Shown here piece after piece: positions 3,287-58,433 of a stretch of DNA of 64,000 nt. The translations under genes and the position numbers were made by a program. The stretch comes from a virus: UHGV virus genome UHGV-0200554. The stretch is one strand, 5' to 3'. Below the pieces are notes generated by a model, which was not told the origin of the DNA, did not search any database, and was given only the letters and a program-made list of their open reading frames with translations. Within the stretch, counting starts at the first letter, position 1. Each line of letters begins with the position of its first letter.

Positions 3287-3801
3287 TGGACCGTGAAGGT
3301 CCGGCATGTAATGCCAGTTTATGGAATGTAATTTGTAGGCATGGAAGCTATTATTTTGCTTAGCTCTGTAATGATTAGCAGGCTGTGTGCTACAACCTTG
3401 TTGTACCTGAATCCTTAGGTTTCTAATGATTAGTTTGCTAAGTATTTATATGTGCCTAACCCCCTACCCCCGGTTCTAGTCTCCCCAACAACGCTGGTAC
3501 TTAAACTCTACCGTTATTGTGCCTTACTGCCCATATTACATCGCAGTTGGCTGGTCACTATAACCGCTCCCGCTCTCCAACCTCGACAAGCTCGTGCGAT
3601 ACTCCATTCATTCGGATGTTCACGCTGTTCACTCAGTCGATATTCCCCTATCTCCTTCAATCCGAAGAGAGAGAAACCCAGAATCGTATTCTGGAAAAGA
3701 GAGAGAAGATCTAAATTATAGCAGGAGATGAGAGGAATTGCAATATGGAGGATACCTACCAGAATTGGTAGGCATATGTGGACAGCACTTATTGACAAAA
3801 A

Positions 3802-4029
3802 CTACTCCGTATCGATATCTACCTCTGTGCCTTCCTCAGGTACAGATAACATAGCCATCTGTAGAGCTTCCTCCCAGTTAGTGCGCTCAGCCTGAGCCAC
3901 CAACTCATCCGGGTCTTTACCCAATGCTTCAGCTAACCGAGATACATAGAGTACACCAGGGAGAAGTTCAGGATCAAATTCAAGATAGAGAATCCCATCC
4001 CCATCTTCTGTGAAAAGCTCAAGTCGCAT
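3802..4029 (-). CDS. hypothetical acidic protein (75 aa)
   Basis: ORF in co-directional leftward gene block. Confidence 0.45.
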   Translation of the reverse strand: MRLELFTEDGDGILYLEFDPELLPGVLYVSRLAEALGKDPDELVAQAERTNWEEALQMAMLSVPEEGTEVDIDTE

Positions 4030-4284
4030 ACTGGCTCCTTATGTTGACTTCATACAGGTTGTACGATGCCTAAAGAGTGAAATTACTTTGTCTCTTCAGG
4101 CAACAGAGCTTGCGATTGTTGTGGATGTGTGGGCAGAGAAGCTACATAGTAGTGAATAGCTCCACGACATACTACAACAGTATGCATATCATTGTGACCG
4201 CTCCAGCTACACACAATATAGCACTTATGATTGCTAATGAGAACAGGCAGTAGCTGATAGCTGTGTCTGTAATATCACTTACCC

Positions 4285-4500
4285 TCATACGCTTCTCCTT
4301 GTTGCTCTTGCTACTTCAAAATAGTCTACATATCTTGATTCTTGCAGGATACGATAGCCTTCCCTATCTGCGTCTTCGATTGTGTGGAAGCGATCTCCAA
4401 GCTCCATACGCTCACCAGATTGTAAAACAATTATCAGCTTGTACATAGACCCTCCTTCATAATGCAAACTGATAATAGCACAGACAGGAGAAGGAGTCAA
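4285..4500 (-). CDS. hypothetical protein (71 aa)
   Basis: ORF in leftward block. Confidence 0.4.
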   Translation of the reverse strand: MTPSPVCAIISLHYEGGSMYKLIIVLQSGERMELGDRFHTIEDADREGYRILQESRYVDYFEVARATRRSV

Positions 4501-4742
4501 GCATAAACCGTGAAGAAAATAGATTATTTTCTGAGCAGTGAAGGTAAGGCTGGAAAAATTTTGGACAGCTCGCCGCTGGCGAGGAAATGTACAGACCCCC
4601 CCTAAAACGTAATAAGAGGGCCTGTAATGGGTTTTTAGGTTAGGGTAGGGTGTTTGCTCAAGTTCTTGCGAAAAATGCGTCAGAATTGCATCTAGGCCCC
4701 TTAAATTTGAAATCTGAGGTCTGTTTTTAGTCTTAGGGTCCT

Positions 4743-40488: not shown

Positions 40489-40564
40489 GCCCCGTTAGTT
40501 CAAATGGAAGAACAGTGGCCTTCTAAGCCATAGGTTACAGGTTCGAGTCCTGTACGGGGTGCCA
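40489..40564 (+). tRNA. tRNA-Arg (anticodon UCU, reads AGA/AGG), CCA encoded
   Basis: Hand-folded cloverleaf: 7-bp acceptor, 4-bp D stem, 5-bp anticodon stem with loop CTTCTAA, 5-bp T stem with TTCGAGT, GCCA 3' end. Confidence 0.85.
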
Positions 40565-40996: not shown

Positions 40997-41398
40997 GTGC
41001 CAGCAGTACTTGCATTCCTGATAAAATATAAGCGCGTGATAAAATGGACTATCGCGGCTGTCTTACTGGTTGTAGCCTGCGCTGGAGTGCACAGTTGGTA
41101 CAACACCCAGATACAAAATGCCTACAACGAAGGGGTCGCTGTAACAGAGCAGAAATGGGATAAACTGATGATGCAGCAGAAGCTACAGGCCAACCAGACG
41201 AAGTTGGAACACGCTTACGAAGTCAGAGAGCTTGAGCAAAAGCTGGCTAACATGCAGAACGCCATGAACGCTCCTGGAGCTTTTGGTGGGGCTACACAAC
41301 AGCAGTTCCAGTCATCTCCAGAAGGGCAACAGAACCGGATCCCAGATAAAGTGATCGATATCTACAACGAAAGTATTAACTCGGAGGTGCAGCAATGA
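40997..41398 (+). CDS. i-spanin (Rz-like: N-terminal TM anchor, periplasmic coiled coil)
   Basis: TM helix IAAVLLVVACAGV then Q/E-rich helical region; followed by lipoprotein ORF overlapping by 4 nt. Confidence 0.55.
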   Translation: MPAVLAFLIKYKRVIKWTIAAVLLVVACAGVHSWYNTQIQNAYNEGVAVTEQKWDKLMMQQKLQANQTKLEHAYEVRELEQKLANMQNAMNAPGAFGGATQQQFQSSPEGQQNRIPDKVIDIYNESINSEVQQ

Positions 41399-41691
41399 GG
41401 TGGTTACTTGCATTAGCGATTGCACTCACGTTTTCTATGGCCCTGGTAGGTTGTAGCTCACCTAAAAGTACGCCAGTTACAGTTGCACCGCAGAAAGTTG
41501 AACAACTTGCTGTAGAGCCTCCTGCGGCAGCTATGATCCCACCAGCAATAGCTATCCCCTTGGTGAAAGGTGCACCAGATGCGGATAACTCTGCAATTAT
41601 GAGGCAGAACAATCTCTCCTGTAGCAATGATCGTGCCAAATTAATCATCTTGCAGGATTATGTAAAATCTTTATTCAATAAGGAGAATTAA
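41395..41691 (+). CDS. o-spanin (Rz1-like outer-membrane lipoprotein)
   Basis: Signal peptide with lipobox LVGC, Pro-rich mature part. Confidence 0.55.
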   Translation: MRWLLALAIALTFSMALVGCSSPKSTPVTVAPQKVEQLAVEPPAAAMIPPAIAIPLVKGAPDADNSAIMRQNNLSCSNDRAKLIILQDYVKSLFNKEN

Positions 41692-42806
41692 TGGCTAAAA
41701 TGTATGGCCCATGCTCCCGTAAACAACAAATGATTCTGGAAAATGATGCCGACTTCCTGATCATTGGTGGGGCAGCGGGTTGTTTGTCAATGCGACATGA
41801 GGTGATGACACCTAACGGGTGGATCAGAATATCGGAATGGGATGGTCAAGATATCCTCCAGTTTGATAAAGAAACTGGTAAGGCCATGTTTATCCAGCCT
41901 GAAGAGTTTGTTAAGCTGGAATGCGACAAACTAACCAGGATTGTGCAGGATGGTATTTGTCAGGAATTATCCGACGAGCACACAGTTCTGTACGTCCCAG
42001 AAGACGGAACAGCTTACGGTACACTTAATTTCGGAGAAGTGGCTGAACAGTATGCTAACGGTGAGTTGGCAATGCGTATGCAGACCACGTTTGTGAACAT
42101 GGGTGGTACTGGCCTTGGCATTTCTGACGAAGAGCTGAAAGAAAGGGCAAGATATTACAAATTCACAGATGAGTGGTATAATTGTGATCGTCGTCAGTTG
42201 TTGCAGATCTGGTATGAGATTTACCTGAACGGTAATGATCCCCATGCCTACGTTGTTCCAACGAAAGAACAGGCTGATTTCTTGCAATACCTCGGATCAT
42301 CTTTAGGTTTCAACGCACAGATCTTCTTCGAAGAAGGTTACAAAGTTGTGTTCTCTAATGAACGTGCAGGTACGATTGCTCTTAATAACGATGCAACGTT
42401 CGAAGAGTTTGAGCCGGAAGATGGTTACAAATATTGTTTTGCTACCACAACAGGCTATTTTATCACCAGACTGGAAAACTGCATTGCAGTGACTGGTAAC
42501 AGTGGTAAATCCTTTCTTCTACAGCTTCTCCCACTAAAGATGATAGATGACCCCAACACTTCTGTGGTGATGTTCCGTAGGACAACTCCACAACTGGAAG
42601 GTGAAGGTGGTCTGTGGCCTAAAGCACTGAGTGTGTATCTGGATCTTCCTGAGTACATGAGGCCGAAATTCAGAGAGAAAGACCATAAGTTTACTTTTCC
42701 ATATTATGATGCAAAGACGGGCAAATGGAATAAGAAAAGAGACGGAGCAGTAATCAAATACTGCCATATGGAATACGTCCAAGATAAGCTGAATCATCAA
42801 GGGTAA
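41691..42806 (+). CDS. terL: terminase large subunit, exon 1 (ATPase N-terminal part; contains intein; ORF runs into intron to first stop)
   Basis: P-loop split as IIGGAAG / SGKSFLLQ around a 240-aa insert; true 3' exon boundary undetermined. Confidence 0.7.
   Translation: MAKMYGPCSRKQQMILENDADFLIIGGAAGCLSMRHEVMTPNGWIRISEWDGQDILQFDKETGKAMFIQPEEFVKLECDKLTRIVQDGICQELSDEHTVLYVPEDGTAYGTLNFGEVAEQYANGELAMRMQTTFVNMGGTGLGISDEELKERARYYKFTDEWYNCDRRQLLQIWYEIYLNGNDPHAYVVPTKEQADFLQYLGSSLGFNAQIFFEEGYKVVFSNERAGTIALNNDATFEEFEPEDGYKYCFATTTGYFITRLENCIAVTGNSGKSFLLQLLPLKMIDDPNTSVVMFRRTTPQLEGEGGLWPKALSVYLDLPEYMRPKFREKDHKFTFPYYDAKTGKWNKKRDGAVIKYCHMEYVQDKLNHQG
41781..42500 (+). mobile_element. intein (~240 aa) inserted in the terminase Walker A motif
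   Basis: Insert begins Cys (CLSMRHEVMTPNGWIRISEW, block-A-like), ends ...CIAVTGN followed by Ser; excision predicts GGAAGSGKS. Confidence 0.55.
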
Positions 42807-43331
42807 ACAAACCTGCCCTTCGTGCCTAATTCGGTGAAACTCCTTGACAAAAGGACAATACCGAGCTACGGTTAAAGGATTAGTTGAAACCGAGTGTAAC
42901 GACTATCCCCGATGAGTGTAGGGGAGTAGAATCACAAGCGATTGGTGATCCAAACGGCACGCCAAGGAGGGAAGAGCTAGTCTGTTCCACATGGTAACAT
43001 GTGGCGGGTGTCTTAGCACACCGCGTCGGAGTAGCGATCCGGCGGGACAAAAGTGGAATATACTTTAATATGTTTTGATGAGGGTTAACTGGTAGCTCTC
43101 GTAAAACCTCCCTAATTGCGGGGAAATCTTTACTATTGACACCACCAACCTATTATGGTAACATAATATTGGCTTCGGAGAAATACCGAAGGTATGGTAA
43201 TAGCGTGTTGATTTAGATAATCCGCAGCGAAGCATCCTGATAGGATGTGTGCTCAACGACTATCGCTTACGGGCGTTAGGGCCAAGCGGCTGGGGAAACC
43301 CACAGTCTTTTAAGACTGCCGAAACGGGAGG

Positions 43332-43625
43332 ATGGGAATGTGTAAAACTAAAAAATGTGTAGATTGCCAGAGAGTCCTACCTCTTGAGGATTTCTTTTTA
43401 TCTTCTAAGAGTAATGATGGGTACTCTGGTACATGCAAGGAATGCTATATGTACTACAGAAAGAATGGATCTCGTAGAAACAAGGATATGGTTAAGAGAG
43501 ATGATGCAGCAGCGTTTATTCAAGATTTGCTAGAGAAAGGTGAGCTTTTTGAATGCAAATCTTGTCATAAAAGTATGCTCGCTGACAATTTTACACAAAA
43601 CGTGATTATGGTAGGGTATATCTAG
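43332..43625 (+). CDS. intron-encoded Cys-rich zinc-binding ORF (possible N-terminal part of the homing endonuclease)
   Basis: CxxC pairs; directly upstream of HNH ORF in another frame. Confidence 0.35.
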   Translation: MGMCKTKKCVDCQRVLPLEDFFLSSKSNDGYSGTCKECYMYYRKNGSRRNKDMVKRDDAAAFIQDLLEKGELFECKSCHKSMLADNFTQNVIMVGYI

Positions 43626-43642
43626 TCACGGGCAGGTGTAAA

Positions 43643-43927
43643 ATGTGTGAGAAGTTCTATCAGCTTGAGAAGAAATTTCACATAACAAAAGACGAATATT
43701 TTCGTCTACTCTCAGATCAAGATTATAAATGTGCCATTTGCGGGATATCACTTGATGAGTATAGGTCGCAAGGGTACAGAGATTTCTTTAGTGTTGATCA
43801 TGACCATAAGACTGGCGCTGTAAGAGGTTTGCTTTGTGATAAGTGTAACAGAGCTTTAGGTTTTTTCCAGGAGGATGAGGAAACTCTTCTTAAAGCGGCA
43901 GAGTATTTACACACTCATAAGATATAG
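43643..43927 (+). CDS. intron-encoded endonuclease VII-type HNH endonuclease
   Basis: DHDHKTGAVRGLLCDKCNRALG signature; stop codon overlaps intron S element. Confidence 0.6.
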   Translation: MCEKFYQLEKKFHITKDEYFRLLSDQDYKCAICGISLDEYRSQGYRDFFSVDHDHKTGAVRGLLCDKCNRALGFFQEDEETLLKAAEYLHTHKI

Positions 43928-44043
43928 TCTGGTCTGCATGGAGACATGCAGCTGCCACATGGTGGCGGGGCAAGAGTAGCGACCTTGCCCGAACACAAAC
44001 GACACAGTTCGATTGGGAGCAAATCGACTACCTGATTTCTCGT

Positions 44044-45123
44044 ATGAGGTCGAAATCGAAATACTCTTCACGGATGGTGATCAGCTGTAACCCGGATTCT
44101 GAACACTATTTAGCCAAACTGGTTCGTTGGTGGCTTGACGACGAGGGCTACCCAGATGAAAGCAAGTGTGGCGTTAAGCGCTATTTCATCCGTAGGGATG
44201 GGGAATTTATCTTCGGCGATACGCCAGAAGAGTTGATCGAGAAGTATACCTATGTTAACGGCAAAGGTGTTGAGATAATCCCAAAACCACTCTCTATCGC
44301 TTTTATCGGTGCAACAATCCACGATAACCCCATCTGCTTGCGTGATAACCCAGAATATCTTGCATTCCTGGAAGGTCTGCCAGAGCTGGAAAAAGCACAA
44401 CTCCTCTACGGTAACTGGTTCGCTAAGCCTGAAGGTGCAAACTATTTCAGTCGCACATTCTTGAAAGATGCGGATCATGTCCCCCTCGGAGCAGTTTCTG
44501 TAAGAGCATGGGATAAAGCTGGTACAGAACGTACCTCTGGCAACAAATTCCCCGACTATACAGCCAGTATCAAGGTCAGTAAGGATAGTGATGGTTACTA
44601 CTACATCTCCGGTGACTATTGCCCTGAAAACGTAGATGATGGCAGATATTCTACGGGCTTGCACGGTAAGTTCTGCAAGAAAGCTGGGGAACGTGATGTT
44701 ATTATCAAGAAACAGGCAGAGTTTGATGGTGAGGACTGCGTAATTGTCTTCTCTGTGGACCCCGGTCAGGCAGGTAAGAGTGAGTTTCTTACTTCATCTC
44801 GTAAACTTCTTGCCGGAGGGTTCAGGGTAGAAGAAGACCCAATGCCGTCTAACAAATCAAAACTCACCCGTTTCTCCCCGTTTGCCAACCTTGCCCAACA
44901 AGGGATGGTGCGGCTTGTCCGGTCAAGTTTCGACCCGGATACACTGGAAGCATTTTTGACAGAGCTGGAGAAATTTAACGGCGAACGGTCAACCTTTAGC
45001 CGTAAAGATGATTGGGCTGACTCCATTGCTTCTGCAATTAACTACCTTGAAAAAGAGGAAGTTGCTATGCCATGTGTTATTCCGAAGATTGTTTCACCCT
45101 CTATGTATAAGAGGATGATTTAA
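44044..45123 (+). CDS. terL: terminase large subunit, exon 2 (ATPase end and nuclease domain; true 5' exon boundary is upstream of this ATG)
   Basis: YLISRMRS...VISCNP and acidic nuclease-like C-terminal region; frame open upstream to ~43921. Confidence 0.7.
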   Translation: MRSKSKYSSRMVISCNPDSEHYLAKLVRWWLDDEGYPDESKCGVKRYFIRRDGEFIFGDTPEELIEKYTYVNGKGVEIIPKPLSIAFIGATIHDNPICLRDNPEYLAFLEGLPELEKAQLLYGNWFAKPEGANYFSRTFLKDADHVPLGAVSVRAWDKAGTERTSGNKFPDYTASIKVSKDSDGYYYISGDYCPENVDDGRYSTGLHGKFCKKAGERDVIIKKQAEFDGEDCVIVFSVDPGQAGKSEFLTSSRKLLAGGFRVEEDPMPSNKSKLTRFSPFANLAQQGMVRLVRSSFDPDTLEAFLTELEKFNGERSTFSRKDDWADSIASAINYLEKEEVAMPCVIPKIVSPSMYKRMI

Positions 45124-45175
45124 GTAGTTGCCAATCTTAGATGAATGTGTTACAATAATCTATAGAGCATAACTA

Positions 45176-45200
45176 AGCCCTCTTCGGAGGGCTATTTCTT
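45176..45200 (+). terminator. hairpin + T-run (AGCCCTC-loop-GAGGGCT, ATTTCTTTT) between terminase and portal
   Basis: Read directly. Confidence 0.5.
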
Positions 45201-45223
45201 TTGTCTAACTTGAGGGTAATCTT

Positions 45224-46783
45224 GTGTCCAAGAAAAGCCGTAGGAAAAACAACGCAGCAGCCAAAGCGAGGGCTGTGAAAAAAGCTGGAAATCAAGATGC
45301 CCAGGTGCACAATGTTCGTCTGGGAGAGATTGGTTCCGGTGCACTGGCTCAGATCCAATTTGAATCTCAGCAGATGATGGTTGAGGAGTTGCGTTGGCCC
45401 AACCTTATCGCTACCGTAGAGACGATGAAATGCGACTCAACAGTAGCTACCGCTCTGGATTCTAAATATGTACTGATCACCAAAGCCTTCAACGATTTCA
45501 AAATTCTCTGTAATGAAGAGAGTGAAGAATCTAAGAAAGCAGCAGCATTTATCGACTATGCCCTGCGTAATCTCTCTAATCAGCAAACACTTCGTGATAT
45601 TGCAAGAAGTGCAGCCACCTTTAATGAATACGGCTTCTCAATATTTGAGAAAGTTTACCGTCGTGAACAGGAAGGGGAGTACGCTGGTAAATTAGTTATT
45701 GACAAGTTTGCATTCAGACCTCAAGCGAGCCTGTCCCGCAGTAACCCGTTCCAGTTTGATAAAAATAGTCGTAAACTTGAAGGTATATGGCAGTCACCGA
45801 ATGCGTTTGTTAATTTCAAACGTAATTCATACGCTGGCCCACTACTTTCTGCTCCGGCAAACTTCAACGGTGAGGAGATTTTCATTCCGGCTAAGAAAAT
45901 CATGATCATGACTCTTTCCGGTACAGAGTCCAATCCGGCAGGTGTTTCACCTATGATTGGTTGTTACAGATCCTTCCGTGAGAAAGTGCTGATCGAAAAC
46001 CTGGAAGTGGTTGGTTGCTCCAAAGATCTTGGTGGTGTGCTTGAGCTGAAAATACCGTCCAACATTCTGAATAAAGCAAGTATCGACCCCACCTCAATGG
46101 AAGGTCAGATGGTTGCTAACCTGATGGCAGATGCTGCAAATGCCCACTCCGGTGAACAGAGTTTCTTTATTCTCCCATCGGATCGTGATAAATCAGGTAA
46201 AGAACAGTATTCCATGGACCTGAAAGGGATCAATGGTGCTGGTAAACAATACTCCACCAAAGATCTTGTTGATGCACGTAAGAAAGCTATCCTTGATAGA
46301 TTTGGTGCTGGTTTTATTAACTTAGGTAACGACAACGTTGGTTCTTACTCGTTGTCCGAGTCCAAACAGTCTTTACATGGTCACTTCGTTAACCGTGATA
46401 TTGACATTATTGTTGAGGCTTTCAACAAAGACTTCATTCCCCAGATGCTGGCGCTGAACGGTATCTACCTCTCCAATGAGGATATGCCGAAACTCAAACC
46501 AGGGTTGACTGAAAAAGTTGACATGGAAGAGTTCTCCAAATTCGTACAGCGTATTGGTGCAGTTGGTTATCTGCCTAAAACTCCGGGTGTTATCAATAAA
46601 ATCCTTGAAGTTGGTGGTTTTGACTACCGCGTTGATGAGGATATTGACACTGAAGAGTTAATGCAAATACTGGGTCAGGATGTAAGTCGGTCAGGTGACG
46701 GTATGGCGGCGGGGACCAACGGTAATGGCACGTCCAGAATGTCATCCACACGCGATAATTCTGTATCAAATATGGAAAATTAA
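45224..46783 (+). CDS. portal protein (putative)
   Basis: 519-aa ORF immediately after terminase; assignment by size and position. Confidence 0.5.
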   Translation: MSKKSRRKNNAAAKARAVKKAGNQDAQVHNVRLGEIGSGALAQIQFESQQMMVEELRWPNLIATVETMKCDSTVATALDSKYVLITKAFNDFKILCNEESEESKKAAAFIDYALRNLSNQQTLRDIARSAATFNEYGFSIFEKVYRREQEGEYAGKLVIDKFAFRPQASLSRSNPFQFDKNSRKLEGIWQSPNAFVNFKRNSYAGPLLSAPANFNGEEIFIPAKKIMIMTLSGTESNPAGVSPMIGCYRSFREKVLIENLEVVGCSKDLGGVLELKIPSNILNKASIDPTSMEGQMVANLMADAANAHSGEQSFFILPSDRDKSGKEQYSMDLKGINGAGKQYSTKDLVDARKKAILDRFGAGFINLGNDNVGSYSLSESKQSLHGHFVNRDIDIIVEAFNKDFIPQMLALNGIYLSNEDMPKLKPGLTEKVDMEEFSKFVQRIGAVGYLPKTPGVINKILEVGGFDYRVDEDIDTEELMQILGQDVSRSGDGMAAGTNGNGTSRMSSTRDNSVSNMEN

Positions 46784-57290: not shown

Positions 57291-58433
57291 ATGACAGATA
57301 TCTACAACGATAAAGTTGTACACGCCGAGGTGGCTCTTGGTAAAGACGCTGCATCGGGTGGCAACAGGACTTCTCTGGATAAAGAGGCTTTACGAAGTTA
57401 TGTTCTTGCTGCTAGAGAGGCGGCTAACAAAGCTAAAGTGGCTTCAGAAGAGGCAGCTTTATCACGAGACGCTTCCCAAGCAAACGCTAACAATGCATCG
57501 ATTTCCGCAACCAATGCACAAGATAGTGCAGATCGTGCAGAATCAGCAGCTAACGCAGCCGAATTATCTTCCTCTTCTGCTGAGGGCAGTGCAACTGCCG
57601 CTGCCTTATCTGCAACGCAAGCATCCGCTGATGCATCTACAGCAACACAAGCAAAAGATGACGCTGTTGCAGCCTCTGGTGTGGCAACCCAACAAGCAGC
57701 AAATGCTGAATCATCTGCCGATACATCCGCTGAAAGTGCAGATGCAGCAGCAGCAAGTGCCGCTTCTGCTCAAGGATCTGCAACTTCTGCTTCCGGTTCT
57801 GCCACGACTGCAACAGAGAAAGCAACAGCAGCGAACAAATCTGCCACCGCAGCAAAAACGTCAGAGACTAATGCCAAAACCTCTGAAACCAACGCCGCAA
57901 GCTCAGCTAGTGCAGCATCCGTTTCAGAAAGCAATGCTTCTGATTCTGCAACAGCAGCAGAGTCTTCAGCGACTTCTGCAAGATCGAGTGCTTCAAGTGC
58001 ATCGACAAGCGCCAGCACAGCCACTACTAAAGCGAACGAAGCTGCAACCAGCGCCACTGATGCTGCTAACAGTGCCAAATCCGCTTCTAATAGTGCATCA
58101 ACTGCGACAACAAAAGCAGGTGAAGCAAGTAAGTCAGCAACAGATGCTGCAAATTCAGCAAGCTCTGCTTCAGCAAGCAAAGATGCTGCTGCTGCCTCAG
58201 CCAGCGCCGCAGCTACCAGCGAAACCAAAGCAAAAGCCAGTGAAACTGCTGCTGCAAGCTCTGCTTCTTCGGCAGCCACCAAAGCATCCGAGGCTGCAAC
58301 ATCTGCCACTAACGCAGCAAAAAGTGCATCAGACGCTGCAAATAGTGTGGAGGAGGTAAAAGCACAGTTCGAACAGCGCCTTACTGAACTTGAGGCAAGA
58401 ATTGCTGCTCTTGAGGGTGCTAAAAATAATTGA
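57291..58433 (+). CDS. Ala/Ser-rich repetitive fibrous protein with C-terminal coiled coil (fibre/whisker-like)
   Basis: Long degenerate repeats (SATxAAxSAxxAAxS), C-terminal EEVKAQFEQRLTELEARIAALE. Confidence 0.5.
   Translation: MTDIYNDKVVHAEVALGKDAASGGNRTSLDKEALRSYVLAAREAANKAKVASEEAALSRDASQANANNASISATNAQDSADRAESAANAAELSSSSAEGSATAAALSATQASADASTATQAKDDAVAASGVATQQAANAESSADTSAESADAAAASAASAQGSATSASGSATTATEKATAANKSATAAKTSETNAKTSETNAASSASAASVSESNASDSATAAESSATSARSSASSASTSASTATTKANEAATSATDAANSAKSASNSASTATTKAGEASKSATDAANSASSASASKDAAAASASAAATSETKAKASETAAASSASSAATKASEAATSATNAAKSASDAANSVEEVKAQFEQRLTELEARIAALEGAKNN

Follow-up and report, generated by a model that had tools for sequence, protein, structure and literature searches.

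Group I introns in the gene for the large terminase subunit (terL) have been described from several groups of phages. The terL intron of phage rV5 was reported by Kropinski et al. in 2013 (PMC3606486), splicing of an HNH-bearing intron in the terL of a related Certrevirus was shown by reverse transcription-polymerase chain reaction (PMC7344957), and from Bastillevirinae and Twort there are reports of terL genes with two or three group I introns, of a small inter-intron exon and of exon skipping between tandem introns (PMC11878797). In the rV5-type phage WalterGehring (MZ501111, BASEL) terL is annotated as a joined coding sequence together with a "putative homing endonuclease", and reads ...LNHQGLEYTMVCFDEG, intron, TQFEWEQIDYL... 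The locus considered here is the terL gene of the virus genome UHGV-0200554, of which a stretch of 64,000 nucleotides (the window, to which coordinates refer unless another locus is named) was analysed. The phage is related to the rV5-like phages (Vequintavirinae) at ~75-82% nucleotide identity, and a search of the phage collection for a near-identical genome found none. Its terL (41691-45123, plus strand) is read as three exons and two group I introns. We put at about 0.88 the probability that this gene indeed contains two separate ribozymes of subgroup IA type, some 11 codons apart, in addition to an intein.

Set against these systems, the locus is a new combination of known kinds and not a new kind, and it opens no new class of mechanism. 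All three selfish elements sit on ATPase motifs: the intein interrupts Walker A, and the two introns flank Walker B. The intron bearing an open reading frame (ORF), here intron 2, which an earlier, sequence-only reading of the window had pointed out, is not new; it is the terL intron of rV5 (PMC3606486) and is spanned by joined coding sequences in BASEL records. The rV5/Vequintavirus intron occupies the same codon position, FDEG^TQF just after Walker B (the caret marks an insertion point or junction), and the rV5-type introns share with intron 2 89% nucleotide identity, the P1 guide, the P3-P9 core, the 3' domain and an Endonuclease-VII-type gene in P8 with 88% amino acid identity after frame repair. 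They differ in that the P7.1/P7.2 insertion of the window copy is ~30 nt larger and its endonuclease gene is frameshifted, and the rV5-type genes lack both intron 1 and the intein.

Intron 1 has its counterpart in the Escherichia phages TH18, 18-1-2, 19-1-2 and 24-2-1 (vB_EcoM_TH18; ON075799 and others), as an unannotated insertion between ORFs labelled "terminase large subunit". This homologue is 82% identical, 245 nt long, ORF-less and of the same fold, and it lies after AGGGU and before the Walker B Leu codon of a gene that likewise holds a Walker A intein. In TH18, however, the insertion is offset by one nucleotide, nothing is found at the position of intron 2, and a different HNH intron lies ~350 nt downstream (ATI^xDNP), so that no 32-nt exon is formed. 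Intron 1 is without annotation in its few other carriers, the TH18-like phages among them; a scan of IMG/VR with the intron-1 core pattern returned L019 alone, from the same contig as the related locus L011. With the multi-intron terL, polymerase and ribonucleotide reductase genes of Bastillevirinae and Twortvirinae (PMC11878797) the window shares several group I introns in one core gene, whereas those phages belong to other lineages (Bacillus and Staphylococcus hosts) and have unrelated sites; in the window the exon between the introns is 32 nt long and equals Walker B, and an intein is the third element.

Exon 1 (41691-42804, +, 1114 nt) was delimited by its ORF and by colinear alignment with the WalterGehring TerL. 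It is followed by the ORF-less intron 1 (42805-43053, +, 249 nt), recognised by the Rfam group I intron model RF00028 and by homologues at the same site, then by exon 2 (43054-43085, +, 32 nt), which encodes Walker B, by intron 2 (43086-44001, +, 916 nt), recognised by RF00028 and holding an endonuclease gene in its P8 loop, and by exon 3 (44002-45123, +, 1122 nt), which starts with TQFDWEQIDYLISRMRS and encodes the remaining ATPase domain and an RNaseH-like nuclease domain. The joined exons measure 2268 nt, a multiple of three, and give 755 codons with a stop-free translation, colinear with the WalterGehring TerL except for a 240-amino-acid insertion in Walker A. Exon 1 ends in ...LNHQG, as CAA GGG U up to U42804, with an in-frame TAA next in the unspliced RNA; exon 2 continues as (U)UG GAA UAU ACU UUA AUA UGU UUU GAU GAG GGU, that is L-EYTLICFDEG, and a UAA comes next. 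Unspliced RNA, in other words, meets a stop at the first codon of either intron. By its motif LICFDE is the Walker B strand of TerL, and the spliced junction protein LNHQG-LEYTLICFDEG-TQFDWEQ is colinear with the uninterrupted LNHQGLEYTMVCFDEGTQFEWEQ. Once introns and intein are removed, Pfam Terminase_6N matches residues 24-294 in one stretch (model positions 1-211 of 215, 78.2 bits), whereas before their removal the exon-1 ORF has no Terminase_6N match and the exon-3 ORF has a partial one of 30.1 bits beside its match to Terminase_6C. A PDB sequence search with the spliced TerL returned no match.

To map the insertions, the spliced TerL without its intein was compared by tblastn with related loci, which were drawn from IMG/VR, GenBank and one metagenome. 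The intein, after residue 30, is present in the window, L003 (TH18), L004, L006, L007, L011 and L023. Site A, HQG^L, which holds intron 1, is occupied in the window, L011, L023 and TH18, and site B, FDEG^TQF, which holds intron 2, in the window, L023, L007 and the rV5-type loci L001, L002, L008 and L009. Two further intron sites were found, site C (ATI^xDNP) in TH18, L010 and L011 (L003 about 3602-4586, L010 3018-4000, L011 4352-5325; RF00028 31-32 bits) and site D, after residue 479, in L006 (5366-6198; RF00028 70.3 bits); L005 has no insertion at all. At site C, TH18 carries a different HNH endonuclease gene. Among close relatives, at least four sites for introns and one for an intein are thus occupied in every combination, with endonuclease-plus, endonuclease-decayed and endonuclease-less versions of the same intron. 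The terL genes of this clade offer a small set of natural variants in which to study how homing elements are gained, decay and are lost, and whether neighbouring ribozymes interfere.

With respect to the two window introns, L007 and the rV5-type loci carry intron 2 only, L011 and TH18 intron 1 only, L004, L005 and L006 neither, and L023 both; relatives with either intron alone have a protein 92-95% identical. Segment 43054-43085 runs on directly from exon 1 in L007 and the rV5-type loci, and directly into exon 3 in L011 and TH18. Because the relatives include alleles with either intron alone and alleles with none, both junction pairs are fixed to the base, and the comparison with uninterrupted homologues, which the sequence-only reading had proposed, placed the junctions and the Walker B motif that it had been unable to locate. 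A 3' end of intron 1 at G43044 was considered and rejected: it would add W-TKV before EYT, residues found in no homologue, and the TH18 intron ends at the equivalent of G43053. Nor is the arrangement a twintron, as the elements are adjacent and not nested, and each is found alone in relatives. The combination of sites A and B around a 32-nt exon, sought with a gapped pattern, is absent from IMG/VR and GTDB genomes and was found in one 130-kb metagenome contig (ERZ1026772 NODE-16, L023), which belongs to a different phage, ~92% identical overall.

Both introns possess the P3-P4-P5-P6-P7-P3'-P8-P7' core with the P3/P7 pseudoknot and the P-Q and R-S pairings, and in both an omega G, placed by the uninterrupted alleles, stands directly before the 3' exon. 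Their layout is that of subgroup IA (IA2-like), with P7.1/P7.2 between P7 and P3' and a P9-P9.1-P9.2 tail. Michel and Westhof in 1990 reportedly defined subgroup IA by two extra helices, P7.1 and P7.2, that follow P7 and precede the 3' strand of P3. The IA2 introns of T4 td, nrdB and nrdD/sunY and of Twort orf142 are alike in P7.1/P7.2, in P9-P9.1-P9.2, in the J6/7-P7 consensus AACGACUA and in having an endonuclease gene in a peripheral loop with its start signals within intron helices. The window introns differ from them by residing in terL, by showing no evident P2, and by an endonuclease that is an Endonuclease-VII-type His-Me finger and not a GIY-YIG enzyme; I-TevI and I-TevII are GIY-YIG endonucleases.

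The P9.2 loops of the two introns (43028-43036 and 43979-43987) share GUAGCGA, and the P7.2 hairpin of the rV5-type intron at site B (GUAGAAUCAAGCGAUUC) resembles P7.2 of intron 1. This loop and this likeness suggest that the terL introns of the clade form one intron family. A by-eye search for a conserved pairing partner of the L9.2 loop GUAGCGA found none; in intron 2 a candidate lies after P7 (UCGCUUAC), but the rV5-type copies do not conserve it.

At the Rfam gathering threshold the whole window yields one tRNA alone, and the introns appear only in E-value mode, in which RF00028 (gathering score 50 bits) gives two separate intron matches and no other in 64 kb. The match to intron 1 spans 42758-43004 with 38.0 bits (E 1e-7 on a 1.6-kb stretch, 4e-6 on the 64-kb window); the copy in L011 scores 49.0 bits. 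The P/Q/R/S set of intron 1 lies at 42828, 42857, 42894 and 42972, and its helices run P1-P3-P4-P5-P6-P7-P7.1-P7.2-P3'-P8-P7'-P9-P9.1-P9.2. In P1 the exon end AAGGGU pairs with the internal guide sequence GCCCUU (42815-42820), with the wobble U42804.G42815 at the 5' splice site, and these pairs are kept in all four homologues. P7 is formed by 42901-42905 and 42978-42982, P7.1 lies at 42906-42925, P7.2 at 42929-42951, and the terminal G is G43053. Across the four site-A sequences the drawn fold pairs 96.3% of cells, compared with 37-42% in slid controls, and contains seven compensatory pairs (in P4, P5, P6 twice, P7.1 and P9.2 twice) as opposed to 0-1 in the controls. The minimum free energy fold gives P1, P4, P5, P6, P7.1 and P9 with a z-score of -2.68, and a 44-nt part is 84% identical to the T4 nrdD intron.

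The match to intron 2 spans 43050-43951 with 47.9 bits (E 1e-10 on the 1.6-kb stretch, 4e-9 on the window). The four core strings quoted in the sequence-only reading are those of this intron, P AATTGCGGGGAAA at 43114-43126, Q AATCCGCAGC at 43219-43228, R GCTCAACGACTA at 43251-43262 and S AAGATATAGTC at 43919-43929, and each occurs once in the window, in the order given there. P1 pairs the exon-2 end GAGGGU with the guide GCUCUC (43095-43100), the wobble U43085.G43095 being kept in all homologues; P7 is formed by 43258-43262 and 43925-43929, P10 by 43088-43093 with the first bases of exon 3, and the terminal G is G44001. The P5 domain is extended, and the larger P7.1/P7.2 insertion (43263-43320) was read from the sequence, since it cannot be aligned with the rV5-type version. 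For an alignment of seven sequences with the endonuclease gene (43349-43902) cut out, RNAalifold recovered de novo P1 with the splice-site U.G, P3, P4, the extended P5, P6, P8, P9 and P9.2. When the P7 pseudoknot and P10 are added, 96.9% of cells are paired, compared with 35-41% in slid controls, with four compensatory pairs in P5b, P5c and P10 (the one in P10 linking the guide region and the start of exon 3).

The endonuclease gene of intron 2 (43332-43927, +) encodes a Cys-rich N-terminal part and a C-terminal Endonuclease VII/His-Me-finger domain. The assignment to Endonuclease-VII-type HNH proteins made in the sequence-only reading holds, with Pfam Endonuclease_7 (PF02945) matching the ORF 43643-43927 (at 43643-43924) with 80.4 bits against a cut-off of 23.6 (E 9e-23), and the TAG stop (43925-43927) does lie inside S, that is in P7'. 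Contrary to what had been supposed, the gene is not one ORF: the T run at 43589-43592 is shortened by a 1-nt deletion, so that the gene falls into 43332-43625 and 43643-43927. One T added to this T4 run restores an ORF of 198 amino acids, 173/196 identical to the intact 196-residue rV5-type protein. The true start is likely AUG 43338, and the C-terminal nuclease domain could still be made from AUG 43643. In L023 the same run is T5, and the gene there carries other single-base homopolymer indels, one additional A near 43350 and one additional T near 43861 (L023 about 8198 and 8760), and HNH where the window has HDH. Together with the gene-less copy in L007, the broken window gene and the L023 indels look like the usual phase of decay and loss, although the differing indels of the window and L023 may be assembly errors instead of independent decay; because of the frameshift intron 2 is probably no longer mobile on its own. 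The 3' strand of P3 forms a Shine-Dalgarno-like GGGAGG ahead of the endonuclease start; the start codon falls within P8, and the stop is part of P7'. By analogy with the T4 introns, folding of the ribozyme and translation of the endonuclease should be mutually exclusive.

For the expression of terL the following course can be proposed. Each intron would fold alone, its guide pairing with the upstream exon end (GCCCUU with AAGGGU, GCUCUC with GAGGGU), and exogenous guanosine would attack after the wobble U, U42804 in intron 1 and U43085 in intron 2. Exon ligation after the terminal G (G43053, G44001) would give the predicted junctions ...CAAGGGU^UGGAAUAU... and ...GAUGAGGGU^ACACAGUU..., and the ligated exons would encode the junction-spanning peptide HQGLEYTLICFDEGTQF / HQGLEYTLICFDEGTQFDWEQ. 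Both excisions would be needed to place exon 1, the Walker B exon and exon 3 in one frame and to restore Walker B, and protein splicing of the 240-residue intein would restore Walker A and yield a TerL of 515 amino acids.

Several points weigh against the three-exon gene with two ribozymes. Both window copies stay below the RF00028 gathering score (38.0 and 47.9 against 50 bits); the check by this model, which the sequence-only reading had proposed, thus produced two matches with E 4e-9 and 4e-6, neither of which reaches the threshold. Covariation comes from few sequences, four and seven, representing two lineages each, and P3 and P7 are invariant in both introns, consistent with the fold and uninformative for covariation. 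P8 of intron 1 is merely 3 bp and mismatched in the window, and P10 of intron 1, as read from the sequence, has 2 bp at best. The frameshift in the endonuclease gene may stem from the assembly or a miscounted homopolymer and not from genuine decay. Finally, the intron 1 guide GCCCUU can also pair 6/6 with the exon 2 end, which makes mis-splicing or exon skipping possible. As to the scores, L007 (4355-4698) holds a 344-nt copy of intron 2 that lacks an ORF; its P8 is short (CUCUCCACAGGGGUG), no remnant of the endonuclease gene is seen in it, and it lies in a terL whose product is ~92% identical to that of the window. This copy scores 81.4 bits, above the gathering score. Since the core of this copy is near-identical, the shortfall of the window intron 2 is plausibly the cost of its ~560-nt P8 insertion. 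The published rV5-type copy scores 48.5 bits.

The alternative that survives best keeps both introns splicing and adds an exon-2-skipped RNA, joining the 5' site of intron 1 to the 3' site of intron 2, as a leak or a regulatory valve on TerL. Beyond the 6/6 pairing of the intron 1 guide, both upstream exons (42799-42804 and 43080-43085) end in AGGGU, the intron 2 guide GCUCUC pairs 5/6 with the end of exon 1, and skipping has been seen between tandem phage group I introns, in a SIOphi gene and in Twort orf142 (PMC11878797; the SIOphi gene is called a terminase in the Results and a polymerase in the Discussion of that paper). Exon 1 joined straight to exon 3, however, is shifted in frame and reaches a stop ~35 codons on, and a frameshifted and truncated product would be waste and not an isoform; local P1 hairpins, moreover, should favour the correct cis pairing. 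Skipping on top of normal splicing is considered unlikely.

A related idea, which we hold to be similarly improbable, extends the role of the guide from splicing to insertion. At site A the intron position is shifted by one nucleotide between lineages: the window has GGG T^TG (42801-42806, 43054; phase 1) and TH18 has GGT^TTG (L003 3005-3011, 3257; phase 0), and in both lineages the intron immediately follows an AGGGU complementary to its guide. A phase shift of this kind is not what plain inheritance or endonuclease-driven homing would produce. Because the insertion tracks AGGGU and not the codon phase, guide-directed reverse splicing might be envisaged, in which the ORF-less intron 1 picks its site by its RNA guide, while the two ribozymes compete for each other's 5' splice sites and may skip the Walker B exon. 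If that were true, the output of TerL would be set by the folding kinetics of two ribozymes plus an intein. In the rV5-type locus L008, at about 1600, CAG GGT TTG GAG provides the intron 1 target AGGGT^T without intron 1, apparently an empty compatible site.

Less probable still is that one or both ribozymes are relics that do not splice, TerL being assembled from separate polypeptides (as is reported for the Aeh1 NrdA split by mobE) or the gene being dead. Annotators of related genomes have called separate terminase ORFs, HNH insertions that do not splice are on record from phages (PMC7344957, which treats Aeh1 and CB7_245), and the Rfam scores are under threshold. Gene callers and several GenBank records of related phages do split terL into two or three "terminase" ORFs, and in doing so drop the Walker B exon. 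But exon 2, unspliced and read from GUG, gives only VEYTLICFDEG*, with no credible ribosome binding site upstream by eye, so that an essential catalytic motif would be lost without splicing. The remaining genes of the packaging and head module are intact, and compensatory changes preserve the pairing in both cores. When the window is compared with L023, identity amounts to 98.4% in the introns and 100% in exon 2, as against ~89-90% in the flanking exons; the four substitutions in intron 1 all fall in loops, at the already unpaired P8 position or in pair-keeping positions, and most of those in intron 2 fall in loops or keep pairs. Both introns are thus very likely spliced actively, a conclusion drawn from the sequences because the Walker B exon cannot be translated alone, the cores are kept by compensatory change, and introns and exon 2 are more alike than the flanking exons.

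That a single group I intron occupies 42805-44043 (or 42805-44001), with all between being intron, is barely credible and is refuted by the comparison of relatives: the interval does contain a complete set of P/Q/R/S elements together with the endonuclease ORF, but a second full core is present at 42805-43053, the segment 43054-43085 encodes a conserved Walker B stretch that is exonic in every relative, the exon 1-exon 3 join fails in frame as described above, and each insertion is found separately in relatives. From the one-intron model of the sequence-only reading there remains a group I intron with an endonuclease that interrupts terL, now resolved into two introns and a 32-nt exon; its end point was misplaced, the true 3' splice site lying after G44001, whereas 44043 is simply the nucleotide that precedes the earliest ATG in the ORF downstream.

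For the two-intron gene, the alleles at both sites also bear on mobility. In its intact form the endonuclease of intron 2 would normally drive homing into intron-less terL alleles during co-infection. In occupied alleles the exon supplies exactly what P1 requires, AGGGU at site A and GAGGGU at site B, whereas empty alleles mostly differ (GGA CTT or GGG CTT at site A; GAA GGG, GAA GGA, GAG GGC or GAG GGA at site B); judged from these alleles, the contrast is the expected signature of homing with co-conversion. Intron 1, which lacks an ORF, lies within 32-351 nt of an endonuclease-bearing intron in 4/4 carriers, and because of this proximity it is most likely maintained, and spread, by hitch-hiking with such endonuclease-bearing neighbours.

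The intein (41781-42500, +, 240 amino acids) lies inside Walker A, and its presence in terL, claimed in the sequence-only reading, was borne out against uninterrupted homologues: rV5-type TerL proteins lack it at that exact point, and it is conserved in L004, L006, L007, L011 and L023. It extends from Cys31 to Asn270, followed by Ser (GGAAG^CLSMRHEV...CIAVTGN^SGKS), ends that fit an in-frame insertion into the conserved motif; the penultimate residue is Gly and not the usual His. Pfam and PDB sequence searches with its first 229 of 240 residues at E<=1 found no family, no match and no Hint/intein domain. The TH18 intein is 329 residues long, with ~90 extra central residues, and by comparison the window intein may have lost most of an endonuclease domain.

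The surrounding module has the order tRNA, two spanin-like ORFs, terL, portal, protease and capsid. Two overlapping ORFs of 133 and 98 amino acids (40997-41691, +), the second of which abuts the terL start, correspond by position to the i-spanin/o-spanin pair upstream of WalterGehring terL. A scan of 41500-45300 gave seven promoter-like sites against 6.5 expected, which is chance level, and six terminator-like sites against 2.9 expected; a terminator-like GC-rich hairpin with a T run is located at 45176-45193 (+), ~50 nt past the terL stop and before portal. Elsewhere in the window, a weak Rfam isrG match at 57814-57978 (minus strand; 28 bits against a gathering score of 100, E 0.0014) is probably due to chance. 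The tRNA gene (40489-40561, +; RF00005, 68.3 bits), with the anticodon loop CUUCUAA, is probably tRNA-Arg(UCU), and in rV5-type phages, too, a tRNA lies upstream of the same module.

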